A model generated the notes under the pieces. It had not been told where the DNA came from. It worked only from the letters and a program-made list of their open reading frames with translations, and ran no database searches. Made by a program: the position numbers and the translations under genes. A DNA stretch of 64,000 nt from Escherichia phage slur14: the sequence record NC_028448.1. The stretch is one strand, 5' to 3'. Positions 29,788 to 35,287 of the stretch are shown here, piece by piece (position 1 is the stretch's first letter; every line of letters starts with the position of its first letter).

Positions 29788-30752
29788 TGTATTCTTTAGA
29801 GGAATTTAATAATCAAGCAATAAACGCAGATTTCCAACGTAATAATATGTTTAGCTGCGTTTTTGCAACAACTCCATCAACTAAAAGCTCTTCGTTGATA
29901 AGTTCAATTAGCAACTTTTCTTATAATAACTTGGGCCTAAATTCAAATTGGTTAGGATTAACTCAAGGTGATATTAATCAGGGAATTACCACGCTAATTA
30001 CAGCTGGCACACAAAAACTGATAAGAAAATCAGGGATTAGTAAATATCTTATTGGTGCCATGAGTCAACGTACAGTTCAAAGTTTATTAGGCTCATTTAC
30101 AGTTGGTACATATTTAATTGACTTCTTTAACATGGCATATAACTCATCTGGATTGATGATATACTCTGTAAAAATGCCAGAGAATAGATTATCCTATGAA
30201 ACTGACTGGAACTATAATTCTCCTAATATTCGTATAACTGGGAGAGAATTAGACCCTTTGGTTATTTCATTTAGAATGGATTCAGAAGCTTGTAACTATC
30301 GTGCAATGCAAGACTGGGTTAACTCTGTTCAAGACCCAGTAACTGGACTACGTGCTTTGCCGCAAGATGTCGAGGCAGATATTCAGGTTAATCTTCATTC
30401 TCGCAATGGATTGCCTCATACTGCGGTGATGTTCACCGGATGCATTCCAATATCAGTGAGCGCTCCTGAGCTATCATATGATGGAGATAACCAAATAACT
30501 ACATTTGATGTTACTTTTGCGTATAGAGTGATGCAGGCTGGAGCAGTTGATAGGCAAGCTGCGCTTGAATGGCTTGAATCTGCTGCTATAAATGGTATTC
30601 AAAGCGTTCTCGGAAATAGTGGAGGTGTTACTGGACTATCTAATTCGCTTTCACGACTCAGTAGATTAGGTGGAACTGCAGGAAGCATTTCAAACATTAA
30701 TACTATGACAGGAATTGTCAATTCGCAAAGTAAAATATTAGGAGCAATATAA
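29787..30752 (+). CDS. 54: Baseplate tail-tube initiator gp54
   Basis: 321 aa ORF; start overlaps gene 48 stop. Confidence 0.85.
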   Translation: MYSLEEFNNQAINADFQRNNMFSCVFATTPSTKSSSLISSISNFSYNNLGLNSNWLGLTQGDINQGITTLITAGTQKLIRKSGISKYLIGAMSQRTVQSLLGSFTVGTYLIDFFNMAYNSSGLMIYSVKMPENRLSYETDWNYNSPNIRITGRELDPLVISFRMDSEACNYRAMQDWVNSVQDPVTGLRALPQDVEADIQVNLHSRNGLPHTAVMFTGCIPISVSAPELSYDGDNQITTFDVTFAYRVMQAGAVDRQAALEWLESAAINGIQSVLGNSGGVTGLSNSLSRLSRLGGTAGSISNINTMTGIVNSQSKILGAI

Positions 30753-30756
30753 CAAT

Positions 30757-30786
30757 GGGGACCGAAAGGTCCCCATATTTTTATTT
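30757..30786. terminator. Bidirectional terminator between gene 54 (+) and a convergent minus-strand ORF
   Basis: GGGGACC-GAAA-GGTCCCC hairpin followed by atatttttattt. Confidence 0.7.
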
Positions 30787-31071
30787 ACGGAATGAAATGA
30801 AAGCAGCAACTGAAGCAACTAAACCGTCTTCAATATAAACTTCAATTTTTACAGGAGCTTCTGACTCAAATTTACCTGTTACTACACCCTGAAAAATACT
30901 TTCAGTCTGTTCTGGCTTTGAAAAATTTTCAGAAGGAAAAATTCCAAACTTTTTATCTGTTCCGAAAATTTTGATAAATTCATCGTAAACCGCTTCGTTA
31001 AAAGCATTATCAGCAGGAATAACGCCTTCAACTACAAGTTCTTGACCTAAAAAGCGTAAAGAAGATTTCAT
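30781..31071 (-). CDS. Hypothetical protein (alt.-3 position)
   Basis: 96 aa ORF; RBS gagga 7 nt upstream; driven by the 54-bp early promoter cassette. Confidence 0.55.
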   Translation of the reverse strand: MKSSLRFLGQELVVEGVIPADNAFNEAVYDEFIKIFGTDKKFGIFPSENFSKPEQTESIFQGVVTGKFESEAPVKIEVYIEDGLVASVAAFISFRK

Positions 31072-31078
31072 TTTGTGT

Positions 31079-31132
31079 TCCTCATGTTATGTCAGTAAGA
31101 CTACTATAACACAACACGAGGGACTTGTAAAC
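31079..31132 (-). promoter_or_regulatory. Conserved early promoter cassette, copy 1 (TTTACA-17-TATAGT plus leader and SD)
   Basis: 54 nt identical to 45355-45408; minus strand gtttacaagtccctcgtgttgtgttatagtagtcttactgacataacatgagga then ATG. Confidence 0.65.
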
Positions 31133-31492
31133 TACATTTTGAACTTTTTAGTACGCGGAATAGGCATGCGTCGATTTTATACTGTTTCATTGTTTGAAGA
31201 GCAGTATCAAAAACAGCATTAATGACACCAATTGGATTTCCACTCAAGTTTTTAAGCTTAACTAATGATAGTTTCTCATTAACACCTATCATTACGATAT
31301 GCATCATTTTGTCGCCTGGTTTAACGTTTTATCTGTATCACCGCCAGAGGTGTATGTACAAAATCTAAATCCAGGAAGCACGCTTTCTTCGCCGGCTTGA
31401 ATAGCAAAAATTTGTGGTATTTTATGCTTAGGATTTAAGTTAACAACCGGCGCCGAAGCGCCGTCAAATAATTATGTAATAAGTTCCATGAT
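31104..31492 (-). pseudogene. Decayed duplicate of the alt 5' region (first ~125 codons): premature TAA at codon 6 and a frameshift; residual 67-codon ORF 31104-31307
   Basis: About 70% DNA identity to alt 33230-33586 by eye; translates MELIT*...PQIF...GFRFCTYTSGGDT...MMHIV...MKQYKIDAC versus Alt N-terminus. Confidence 0.6.
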
Positions 31493-33586
31493 TTATCCTT
31501 GAACGAACTTGTAAGGCATGTTTGCAATATCTATGCAAGACGCAATAATTCCAAGAGATGATTCTACTTTCTGTTTAACATTTGATGAAACAAATGATGC
31601 AAAGTCAACTCTGTCTTCTATTTCAATATCACCTGTCATTGCAACCAATTCACCAGTTTCCATTAAATGGTCTCCATCATAGATTACCGATTCGGTGAGC
31701 TCTTCCGTGGTCATAACTTCAGCTTGAATGAGTTTTGTATTATTAGATGTTGTTCCGTCATTATTAGAAGCATCAGTTATTTTATTAACTTTGACCATCA
31801 ATCCACGCGGTAGAATAACTTCAGCTTCTGTTGCTATTCCGAGACTTCCTGGATATACAACATTAACTTTATGAGCTCCATCAATTGCCCATCCTATTTG
31901 AACTTTAACGTATTCAGGATTTTCTTTATACGCTCTTATTTCGTTTGGATTAATAGTTATTCCTTCTTCATTTTTATCAACTGTTAATTCATTGCGAGCT
32001 TCTGGTTCTAAAAGACCAATACCAGCATGTGTAATTCCAAAACGTCCAAAAATGATAGGAGTTAAAGAAGTAGATACAAAATTTCTGAAATAGAATACTT
32101 TATTTTTAACTAGTGCTTCGTATATAGGAGCAGTCATACTTTGAGCACGATAAACTGTAATGCCTTCTGGTATACGATCACCATTTTCAAAAGCAGAATC
32201 TAAATTAGTTATAGCAGCTTCAATTTCTTTTTCACTCATTACTTCATAACGTTCTGGATCATAACGACCCAAAAGAAGATTATTGATGTCAGTATATCCT
32301 GAACCGCAATACTCTCTAATGCCACGCTTTTGTGATGGAGTATATTTAGAACCATCACGGGCAATAGTAATATCAATCATTGGACCTGCACCAATTCCAG
32401 AGAAACTATAAATCATTCTTTTGAGGAATTTAGTTTTTGTCGCGTTCCAGGAATTTTTAGTTATTTCTTCCCAGACTTCATCTGGCTGTCCTTTACGGGT
32501 TTTATTATGTTTATCAAGCCAAGTATCTTTATATTCTTCAAATAATTGATTAACAGCTGCTGCGTATTTCTCTAAACATTTTATTGAAGTAGTCGGTTCA
32601 TTTTTAATCGCATTAAGAATTACATCTTTAATTTTTTCAGAAACTTCATTAACCTCACTTTTTGAAAAGAATTTATAGTCATAATGAAGTTCATCTGCAG
32701 TTCCTTCGGCAATGATTTTTGCTGCCTTAGTTTTAGAAGCTAATGAATTAATTCCAATTTTCATTTCTTCTGCTTCGGGAATTAAAGGTGCAGTAGCTGG
32801 TTTATTAAAATTAGCTGCTGTAGATTCATACTTCTGGAATAATTCACTTTCAAATCTAGAAGACTCTAATGATTGACTTTGTGCAATTGCTCTACGGGAA
32901 ATTTTAACTTTAACGATTACAGCTTGATCAGAACGTTTATCATTTTCTTGTGCAATAGATGCTGCAATTGCCTCATTTTTAGTTACTTGAGCTCCAGTAT
33001 CTTTATTGATATAAACATCACCGACCTTCGATTCAACTTTAGTAAAGAGCTCGGTACTAATTTCCGGAACCCCTGGAATGTCTTCTAGCGATACATTTTT
33101 GCGATGTATAAGAATATATGCATACTTTTTATCATAATCCCAGAGTTCCTTAAGAAGGACGTATCTGCCACCTGAACGACTACGGATAAGTCTATCAGCA
33201 ATAACTTGAATTTGTCGAGCTTGACCAGCAGTTTTAGACTTAAGAATACGGAGCATACAGGCATCAATTTTATACTGACGCATTGTTTGCATTGCAACAG
33301 TAAAAACCGAATTGATATAATTAATTGGGCTTGGACCAAGACCTTTCAATTTAGCAATTGAACCTTTAGCGGTTAATGTAAAAGGAACAATATGCATCAT
33401 TTTATCGCCCATCTTTAAATCGCGATTAGTATCACCTCCAGATGTATAGGTACATAAACGAAAACCTGGTTGTTCAATTGCGTCATCAACATGAACTGAA
33501 AAAATTTGTGGTATTTTCTTCTTTGGATTTAAGTTTGTAATTGGAAGAGTAGTATCTTCGTCAAATAATTCTGTAATTAGTTCCAT
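31493..33586 (-). CDS. alt: Alt ADP-ribosyltransferase (packaged in the capsid)
   Basis: 697-698 aa (tandem ATG ATG; second has better SD spacing); N-terminus MELITELFDEDTTLPITNL as T4 Alt. Confidence 0.85.
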   Translation of the reverse strand: MELITELFDEDTTLPITNLNPKKKIPQIFSVHVDDAIEQPGFRLCTYTSGGDTNRDLKMGDKMMHIVPFTLTAKGSIAKLKGLGPSPINYINSVFTVAMQTMRQYKIDACMLRILKSKTAGQARQIQVIADRLIRSRSGGRYVLLKELWDYDKKYAYILIHRKNVSLEDIPGVPEISTELFTKVESKVGDVYINKDTGAQVTKNEAIAASIAQENDKRSDQAVIVKVKISRRAIAQSQSLESSRFESELFQKYESTAANFNKPATAPLIPEAEEMKIGINSLASKTKAAKIIAEGTADELHYDYKFFSKSEVNEVSEKIKDVILNAIKNEPTTSIKCLEKYAAAVNQLFEEYKDTWLDKHNKTRKGQPDEVWEEITKNSWNATKTKFLKRMIYSFSGIGAGPMIDITIARDGSKYTPSQKRGIREYCGSGYTDINNLLLGRYDPERYEVMSEKEIEAAITNLDSAFENGDRIPEGITVYRAQSMTAPIYEALVKNKVFYFRNFVSTSLTPIIFGRFGITHAGIGLLEPEARNELTVDKNEEGITINPNEIRAYKENPEYVKVQIGWAIDGAHKVNVVYPGSLGIATEAEVILPRGLMVKVNKITDASNNDGTTSNNTKLIQAEVMTTEELTESVIYDGDHLMETGELVAMTGDIEIEDRVDFASFVSSNVKQKVESSLGIIASCIDIANMPYKFVQG

Positions 33587-33638
33587 CATATCCTCTCTAG
33601 TGTTTATTCTATTTATAAAATTAAAGGCCCGAAGGCCT

Positions 33639-33827
33639 TTAGTAATCTAGTGGTAAGAGAGTACGATATATTTCAAACTTTGGTCCTTTTTCATAGGCAT
33701 CAAATGTTTCTGTAAATTTATTATAAGCGTATGCATCTACAAATTCGAGAATGACTTGTGATACAGAAGTAGAAACATCTCCACCTTCTTTTTGAGCAAT
33801 GACAATTGTTTCTAAGTAAGCTTTCAT
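33639..33827 (-). CDS. Hypothetical small protein
   Basis: 62 aa ORF; ATG overlaps gene 30 stop (ATGA). Confidence 0.45.
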   Translation of the reverse strand: MKAYLETIVIAQKEGGDVSTSVSQVILEFVDAYAYNKFTETFDAYEKGPKFEIYRTLLPLDY

Positions 33828-35287
33828 AGACCAGTTACCTCATGAAAATCACCAAATACATCCTCGAATGTATTAGCTTTAGTTTTATCTTCACGTAAAC
33901 GAATCGCAATCGGAAGAAATAATTTAACGTAATCAGTGCGGCCATCAGATTTTAACCAACCGTTGCATTCGCACTCTAGAATTTTTCCAATATAATAATT
34001 TTGGTTTTCCATAATGCGAGTACGGTCAAGTTCATGTGATTTTACACCGGCTTTATCTTTTAAGCCTGAACCAGCATTTACCTTAATTTTTCCACACTCT
34101 GACTCAAGAATAAATCCACCCGCTTTAGTAGGGTCTTTACGGTGAGGATAAATTCCTACAATTTTTAAATCAACATCAATTACTTCTTTAAATTTATAGA
34201 GATTTTTTGAACGAGCATTTTCCCATAATCCATCGATATTTTTGAGAATAATACCTTCAAGACCTTGGTCAATATACTTTTTATAAATTACCTTAGCTTC
34301 ATCTAGGTTATTTACTACCTGGTTTTCAATTAAAATTACTTTATCATAGCCTGATGTCATTTGTTCTAGTTTAGAAAAACGTACATCATATTTTAAACGA
34401 AACGCCGGAAGACCGTATATTTCTACCAACGGGACATAATCCCAGACCTGAAACTTCATGCATTGAGCTTCTTTTTCGGAAATGGTTCCCTTTAAAGATT
34501 TATTAGCGATTCCATTAGAAGTAGTACGTGATTCAGCTACTTCGGCGAATTCTTTGGCTTTACTAATTTCAGGATAAGCATCAAAAAGAAAATCTAGGCC
34601 TTCTGGCTCCTTTTTAACTTGCTCATGGTATACCAATTCGCCATCAATTAACACGCCTTCTGGATGAATCTGGCGGGCTTCAGCGGTCATTTTGATTAAT
34701 TCTTCCTTAAGAAGATCTAATCCTAGATATTCATTACCGGCTCGTGATAAAAGACGAACATCATCTAATTCATCACCTCTGACTTCGGCAAAGCACCGAG
34801 CCCCATCAGCTTTTAACTGGGCAAAGGCTGGAAATTTGATATTCTTATTAATGCCTTTTTCATCATAAGAACTTGCCAGCATTTGAGGTTGTTCAGGAAT
34901 TAAACCTGGCCAAACTTTGTTTGCAATAGATACTGAAGCACCACATTCAAGGTCTCGCATCATCACTCGACGCAAAACTTCAACATCATCTTTTTTACCA
35001 TCGGTGATATATCCAGTTAATTCCTCAATTGCTGCATTTCCAGTCAATTTCCGAGTAGCTAATGTGAATTCAATGAAGTCAAGCATATCGGTAAGAGTCA
35101 ACATTCCAAAACTCTGGGTAGCAATACCAGGTTTAGGCCATTTCTTGATATAATACTGCAGCCCACGAGAATAAGTCAGACGATATACTCGTTTAAGCAA
35201 TTCATTATCTTTATTCTTTTCAAGAATTGCTTGCTTCTGCTTAGTTGAACCAATAGATGCTATTTCGTTCAGAATTTTAAGAATCAT
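33824..35287 (-). CDS. 30: ATP-dependent DNA ligase gp30
   Basis: 487 aa; adenylation motif KADG (QLKADGARCF); length as T4 ligase. Confidence 0.9.
   Translation of the reverse strand: MILKILNEIASIGSTKQKQAILEKNKDNELLKRVYRLTYSRGLQYYIKKWPKPGIATQSFGMLTLTDMLDFIEFTLATRKLTGNAAIEELTGYITDGKKDDVEVLRRVMMRDLECGASVSIANKVWPGLIPEQPQMLASSYDEKGINKNIKFPAFAQLKADGARCFAEVRGDELDDVRLLSRAGNEYLGLDLLKEELIKMTAEARQIHPEGVLIDGELVYHEQVKKEPEGLDFLFDAYPEISKAKEFAEVAESRTTSNGIANKSLKGTISEKEAQCMKFQVWDYVPLVEIYGLPAFRLKYDVRFSKLEQMTSGYDKVILIENQVVNNLDEAKVIYKKYIDQGLEGIILKNIDGLWENARSKNLYKFKEVIDVDLKIVGIYPHRKDPTKAGGFILESECGKIKVNAGSGLKDKAGVKSHELDRTRIMENQNYYIGKILECECNGWLKSDGRTDYVKLFLPIAIRLREDKTKANTFEDVFGDFHEVTGL

Follow-up and report, generated by a model that had tools for sequence, protein, structure and literature searches.

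The DNA immediately downstream of alt in Escherichia phage slur14 is very probably a unitary pseudogene: a stub, now decaying, of what was once a full-length gene for a second Alt-type ADP-ribosyltransferase. We analysed a 64,000-nucleotide stretch of the phage genome (NC_028448.1; hereafter the window), in which BLAST and tblastn place the remnant at 31132–31489 on the minus strand. It belongs to the second alt paralogue, which is known as alt.-2 or Alt2 in relatives and is represented by alt.-1 plus alt.-2 in T4. The partial look of the stub comes from a later internal deletion between 9-bp direct repeats. The locus is already known, having been annotated in T4 and discussed as an alt-derived remnant, and the window carries one allele of it; our sole refinement is to recognize in the stub, instead of a partial duplication, what a repeat-mediated deletion has left of a complete gene.

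Similarity of the stub to alt

A 3.2-kb query around the stub gives a 100% match to Escherichia phage slur03 (Tequatrovirus) and matches of 90–99% to more than 500 T4-like phages. The minus-strand gene order in the window is that of T4: the DNA ligase gene lig (33824–35287), alt.1 (33639–33827), alt (31493–33589), the stub and alt.-3 (30781–31071), after which gp54 lies on the plus strand. Both neighbours of the stub are intact. Upstream, alt encodes the capsid-packaged ADP-ribosyltransferase as a 698-amino-acid open reading frame (ORF) with a PF03496 domain (E = 1.9e-36), annotated in the slur03 record as an Alt-like RNA polymerase ADP-ribosyltransferase; downstream, alt.-3 encodes a DUF5498 protein. 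A tblastn search of the window for further alt-like copies returned alt and the stub only.

An earlier note on this DNA had proposed that the whole of 31104–31492 is a copy of the alt 5′ region. Homology to alt is firmly supported: local alignment of this interval matches 31143–31489 (minus strand) to the 5′ end of alt with 229 of 340 positions identical (67%) and a score of 109, against 20.3 ± 2.4 (maximum 31) for 300 shuffles. In a tblastn search of the window with Alt, the stub is recovered as two frame-shifted pieces, 31492–31307 and 31328–31143, that match Alt residues 1–118 with 56–58% amino acid identity (E = 7e-33); this N-terminal region is thought to direct head packaging. The match is shorter than the ~125 codons proposed, however, comprising about 113 codons (111–113) and ending at 31143. 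The last ~40 nt of the interval (31104–31142) are not alt-like, and consist instead of the final 11 nt of the paralogue with their TAG, followed by the promoter of alt.-3.

The parent gene is a full-length second Alt paralogue

Many relatives span 4.9 kb at this locus, compared with 3.2 kb in slur03. The additional DNA in Shigella phage Shfl2 consists of Shfl2p198 (2058 bp, 685 amino acids), a complete gene directly 3′ of alt whose annotation names a second Alt-like ADP-ribosyltransferase. Its product aligns with Alt along the full length at 42% identity and has its ADP-ribosyltransferase (ART) domain at residues 416–620 (PF03496, E = 3e-20); searching the PDB with the sequence of the intact paralogue returned no relative of solved structure. 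The full-length gene is annotated in many genomes and goes by several names, being Shfl2p198 in Shfl2, ‘alt.-1’ in T2, ‘alt.-2’ in RB27 and ‘ADP-ribosyltransferase Alt2’ in the BASEL phage Bas43. Of 496 records that match the intact gene, 402 (about 80%) hold at least 80% of it.

We aligned a sample of 17 deletion alleles and 9 intact genes, 26 alleles of about 490. The GenBank records were picked singly, and an IMG/VR scan with the alt.-3 protein gave five loci: two deleted, two intact and one (L017) cut by a contig end. All nine intact copies are open for 685 codons and have GAA at codon 6, a run of five A residues (A5) at the position of the stub frameshift and both 9-bp repeats. The intact paralogue is under purifying selection: when its first 348 nt are read in the ancestral frame, 33 polymorphisms are synonymous and 2 are non-synonymous. 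Alignment of the intact copy with Alt extends from end to end, which makes it unlikely that a T4-like stub gave rise to the 2058-bp copies through an insertion. In the literature on alt.-1, alt.-2 and Alt2 we found no function for the full-length paralogue, and our searches turned up only Nolan et al. 2006 on the locus. T4 lacks Alt2, and hence cannot be used to study what the protein does.

A deletion between direct repeats removed the catalytic domain

The stub consists of the first 348 nt of the paralogue (347 after the loss of 1 bp) joined to its last 11 nt, which carry the original TAG at 31132–31134. Its 5′ piece, taken with the preceding tail of alt, is identical to the corresponding part of Shfl2 at 446 of 459 nt, and its 3′ piece matches the last bases of Shfl2p198 and the alt.-3 leader at 148 of 152 nt. 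Overall the stub is 97% identical in nucleotide sequence to the ends of the paralogue, compared with 67% to alt, and tblastn with Shfl2 Alt2 gives 87–98% amino acid identity. It follows that the duplication alone is old, whereas the decay is recent.

The two segments matching Shfl2p198 overlap on the 9-mer CTAAAAAGT, which marks the deletion junction at 31143–31151 (minus strand) and is retained there as a single copy. In each of the nine intact genes examined, CTAAAAAGT occurs at both nt 340–348 and nt 2039–2047. We therefore conclude that the 1,699 bp between the direct repeats were lost and that one repeat was kept, a deletion that also shifts the reading frame. The stub is without paralogue residues 114–682 of 685, and hence without all catalytic motifs. 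The junction pattern ...CGCGTA CTAAAAAGT TCAAAATGTAG... is present both in the record from which the window is taken and in T4.

Two smaller lesions accompany the deletion, both on the minus strand and both anticipated by the earlier note. Codon 6 of the paralogue, GAA in all nine intact copies sampled, is TAA in the stub (31472–31474); an exact 60-mer that includes this stop codon occurs in 43 of 485 matching records. The A-run at 31327–31330 has four residues (A4), one fewer than the A5 of all intact copies, and this missing base is the frameshift. The description of the interval as a pseudogenised relative of alt thus holds, since relative to the intact paralogue it carries a nonsense codon, a frameshift and the 1,699-bp deletion. 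The stub is not translatable from its own start. The codon-6 stop leaves a five-codon mini-ORF at 31472–31489 (ATG GAA CTT ATT ACA TAA, encoding MELIT*), which begins 3 nt past the alt stop, and the final codons of alt ahead of it contain a Shine–Dalgarno-like AAGGA. Ribosomes ending translation of alt could re-initiate on this mini-ORF.

Together these features very probably reflect a history in three steps. An old tandem duplication of alt produced a complete paralogue, which now shares 42% protein identity with Alt. Much later, slippage or illegitimate recombination between the CTAAAAAGT repeats removed 1,699 bp and with it the whole catalytic domain. The stub then acquired the 1-bp loss in the A-run and the GAA-to-TAA change at codon 6.

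Elements of the stub that may still act

One feature runs counter to simple decay. Across 89 records, which represent at least eight named species, the stub has kept its length and has undergone no other large deletion. Something within it could be needed, and a promoter and a hairpin may be the explanation.

The 3′ end of the stub abuts a predicted early σ70-type promoter of alt.-3 (31103–31131, minus strand), identified in a promoter scan and composed of TTTACA, a 17-nt spacer and TG-TATAGT. With 10 of 12 matches and an extended −10 element it resembles a promoter more closely than any other site in the region, and the annotation of phage Lutter marks it as one. Its sequence agrees with the early −35 motif of T4, GTTTAC (PMC1524935), and the −35 box is invariant in the sampled alleles. 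The deletion ends 12 nt before the promoter. In T4, alt.-3 is early at both the RNA and the protein level (PMC9697503 Table S2). The promoter was spared by the deletion and probably still acts.

The hairpin is a C(UUCG)G tetraloop on a 6-bp stem of G:C pairs throughout (−12.8 kcal/mol), detected as a 16-nt palindrome on the minus strand. The earlier note had recognized this perfect GC hairpin but placed it at 31449–31464, and its correct position is 31448–31463. It begins 29 nt past the alt stop codon, within codons 9–14 of the paralogue, and is invariant in all 26 sampled alleles, whether intact or deleted. Because it is an invariant feature of the coding 5′ end of the intact paralogue, it was not created in the remnant. 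The corresponding codons of the intact genes, for Gly-Ala-Ser-Ala-Pro, include GGC, TCG, GCG and CCG, each of which accounts for only ~8–12% of the codons for its amino acid in alt; these rare codons end in G or C, in a genome with a G+C content of 36%. The combination of rare codons and invariance suggests selection on the structure, as an RNA element within coding sequence. The hairpin is as stable as a terminator-like hairpin between alt.1 and alt (−11.8 kcal/mol).

We rejected the hairpin as a canonical intrinsic (rho-independent) terminator. A terminator scan does not call it, and the stem-loop is followed not by a U-tract but by GUUGUUAACUU. An Rfam search of 30500–33900 at a permissive threshold gave two sub-threshold chance hits only, and so assigns the hairpin to no known RNA family. 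The hairpin probably still acts, and it may serve as a 3′-end barrier or weak terminator for the alt mRNA.

These elements bear on the possibility that the stub is kept as a non-coding regulatory spacer, with its DNA under selection because the hairpin acts at the 3′ end of the alt mRNA or on read-through and the promoter drives alt.-3. We hold this only tentatively, and it would add to the pseudogene interpretation without replacing it. In its favour are the invariance of the hairpin in 26 of 26 alleles, its composition of four rare codons where the genome has 36% G+C, a stability that matches that of the alt.1/alt hairpin, the invariant GTTTAC of the −35 box, the halt of the deletion 12 nt short of the promoter, and the early expression of alt.-3 in T4 (PMC9697503). 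Against it, the hairpin lacks a U-tract and goes undetected by the terminator scan, and the fold z-score of its 81-nt context is just −1.6. Moreover, the sequence between the hairpin and the promoter, some 300 nt, has evolved under relaxed constraint, and identity across the region is so high that invariance weighs little.

Distribution and decay among relatives

An uninterrupted match to a 136-nt probe spanning the slur03 junction is found in 89 of 497 records, which include T4, RB59, Lutter, G8, HY03, fPS-2, pSe_SNUABM_01 and IME537. All 17 sampled stubs have the same junction, whereas their other lesions differ. Besides the deletion, phage N2 has no lesion; two stubs (fPS-2 and PTE-Eco15) have only the TAA; six (T4, RB59, G8, F25 and two IMG/VR contigs) have only the frameshift; and eight (slur03, Lutter, pSe_SNUABM_01, ESh36, SP21535, IME537, 235Ecol030PP and HY03) have both. 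Further damage affects the 67-codon ORF that remains in the stub (see below). It is broken in IME537 and 235Ecol030PP, which have each lost one more base, and in HY03, which has a 7-bp duplication. In F25 a base lost inside the junction repeat lengthens it to 74 amino acids, and in PTE-Eco15 a base change removes its stop codon to give 68 amino acids.

The stubs are under relaxed selection and have decayed further independently. Over the same 348 nt, variants private to stubs number 2 synonymous and 11 non-synonymous, against 33 and 2 among intact genes (Fisher p = 2.4e-7), where ‘private’ depends on the 26-allele sample, and 5 of the 17 stubs carry the extra damage described above.

In phage N2 (positions 701–1087 of locus L005) the stub is an open 128-codon ORF made up of 116 N-terminal residues of Alt2 and an out-of-frame tail. 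This allele may be the youngest form of the stub or a recombinant one, and its ORF, if translated, would yield an N-terminal fragment without the enzyme.

A neighbour-joining tree of the 5′ 348 nt places the deletion alleles, which are not monophyletic, in three haplotype groups, with N2 grouping with Shfl2-like intact genes and fPS-2 and PTE-Eco15 with T2-like genes. T-even phages recombine freely and frequently, and for this reason the haplotype tree does not separate a single origin of the deletion from a recurrent one: the deletion either arose once and was spread by recombination or recurred at the same repeats.

A separate deletion of ~1.9 kb is present in phage sutha (3000–3128 of locus L012), between AAGTTCGTyCAA repeats (8+3 bp) located at the 3′ end of alt and near the 3′ end of the paralogue. 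The end of alt is there fused to the last 128 nt of the paralogue, which gives Alt the C terminus ...YKFVQ*; the annotation also lists a 117-bp ‘Alt-like’ fragment. Because the sutha deletion differs from the T4-type deletion, the paralogue is dispensable and has been lost at least twice.

We consider it improbable that the presence or absence of Alt2 is an adaptive polymorphism rather than the result of neutral loss; separately, the rare-codon hairpin in the Alt2 5′ coding region may be an RNA element serving alt. Repeated selection to drop Alt2 would fit the two types of repeat-mediated deletion (T4-type, in 89 records, and sutha-type) and their occurrence on several 5′ haplotypes. If the loss were adaptive, it would imply repeated selection against an effector, for example in hosts with a defence that senses Alt2. 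T4 would then be a natural Alt2 knockout, explaining why Alt2 was never studied.

The residual 67-codon ORF

The residual 67-codon ORF beginning MMHIV... that the earlier note had picked out is present at 31104–31307 (minus strand) and is of the T4 alt.-2 type (phrog_15247). The comparison with T-even alt.-1 and alt.-2 that the note had proposed bears this out: the ORF occupies the same locus as T4 Alt.-2 and is identical to it at 65 of 67 residues (97%). It restarts at ancestral Met61/Met62 and follows the ancestral frame as far as the junction, from where it runs out of frame past the old TAG (31132–31134) and ends at a TAG within the −10 box of the alt.-3 promoter. Its last 14 residues are this out-of-frame reading through the old stop codon into the promoter. 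The ORF matches positions 64–120 of phrog_802, the Alt-like ART family (E = 2e-19), and the stub as a whole covers only positions 2–120. Pfam searches gave no hit for either the 67-residue ORF or the 128-residue N2-type ORF, and the catalytic R-S-ExE domain is absent.

We conclude that this ORF is not a maintained gene and arises from a chance restart at an internal Met-Met. That it instead encodes a working small protein from the middle of the Alt N-terminal region, possibly interacting with the capsid or with Alt, is very unlikely. The ORF is intact and 97% identical in slur03 and T4, intact in 12 of 17 sampled stubs and the basis of its own PHROG family, and in T4 the alt.-1/alt.-2 region is transcribed, in the ‘middle’ class (PMC9697503 Table S2). 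However, indels or loss of the stop codon break or alter it in the other 5 of the 17, all three stub-private substitutions within it are non-synonymous, its last 14 residues are out-of-frame sequence from beyond the old stop codon, and its high identity reflects the youth of the deletion and not selection. In addition, Alt.-3 was found in a time-resolved T4 proteome from which Alt.-1 and Alt.-2 were absent despite transcription of the region (PMC9697503 Table S2), although for two proteins this small a miss in shotgun data, from T4 and not from slur03, is weak negative evidence.

Two PHROG families listed as ‘unknown function’, phrog_15247 (67 amino acids) and phrog_23015 (61 amino acids), comprise ORFs called on the pseudogene, and both map to the N terminus of phrog_802. 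Rather than being protein families whose function is unknown, they are fragments of a pseudogene, as is the 67-residue ‘hypothetical protein’ predicted in the window and in dozens of other T4-like genomes.

Relation to T4 and other known systems

In T4’s own annotation, alt.-1 and alt.-2 are put down to an old duplication that took in the first part of alt, a description also given by Nolan et al. 2006 (PMC1524935). The T4 genes alt.-1 (61 amino acids, T4p199) and alt.-2 (67 amino acids, T4p198) share with the stub in the window the slot between alt and alt.-3, the 1,699-bp junction and the A5-to-A4 frameshift. The window differs in the additional GAA-to-TAA change, which cuts the alt.-1 ORF down to 5 codons, whereas T4 keeps 61. 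The full-length Tequatrovirus paralogue occupies the same slot and is the parent gene, to whose first 348 and last 11 nt the stub is 97% identical; unlike the stub, which has no catalytic domain, it encodes 685 amino acids with PF03496 and is under purifying selection. T4 Alt (gpAlt) is a capsid-injected mono-ADP-ribosyltransferase that modifies Arg265 of the RNA polymerase α subunit (Hinton 2010, PMC2988021). Its N-terminal region is homologous to the stub (56–58% amino acid and 67% nucleotide identity over the stub), but the stub is a remnant of the paralogue and not a copy of alt, and it is without the catalytic domain.

Deletions between short direct repeats are familiar in T-even phages from the classical rII deletion studies. 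The stub resembles these in having its breakpoints on a perfect 9-bp direct repeat of which one copy is kept, and sutha provides a second case; it differs in being a natural polymorphism over many species and not a laboratory mutant.

The earlier note had read the stub as an ancient tandem duplication of part of alt, of which the duplication stands and the partial, 5′-only copy does not: the duplicate was a complete 685-residue gene that later suffered an internal deletion. It is most improbable that only the 5′ third of alt, with the capsid-targeting region, was anciently duplicated in tandem and later acquired a stop codon and a frameshift, for although the stub is homologous solely to the first 111–113 codons of alt and Nolan et al. 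2006 (PMC1524935), like the T4 annotation, describe it in partial-duplication terms, it is 97% identical to a complete paralogue present in about 80% of relatives and 67% identical to alt, its 3′ end is the last 11 nt of that paralogue with its own stop codon, and its breakpoints fall on a 9-bp direct repeat of which intact genes have two copies. The standard T4 note on alt.-1 and alt.-2 is corrected accordingly: they are the remains of a complete second gene for an ADP-ribosyltransferase, which is intact and under purifying selection in about 80% of sequenced Tequatroviruses.

Flanking signals

The start of alt offers two in-frame ATG codons (ATGATGG, in the region 33583–33617), of which RefSeq takes the second (33586). 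Upstream of it lies a perfect T4 late-promoter consensus box, TATAAATA (33610–33617, minus strand), which is consistent with late expression of a head-packaged protein.

At the other end of the locus, a bidirectional terminator hairpin, ATGGGGACC-loop-GGTCCCCAT, lies between alt.-3 and gp54 (30755–30776). Its stem is constant among the phages compared. Read in the alt sense, the 4-nt loop is GAAA in Shfl2, T2, AR1, JoYop, RB27 and locus L014, and TTTC in slur03, ime09, Bas43 and locus L013. This is a loop-inversion polymorphism, in which the GAAA tetraloop has moved to the opposite direction of transcription.
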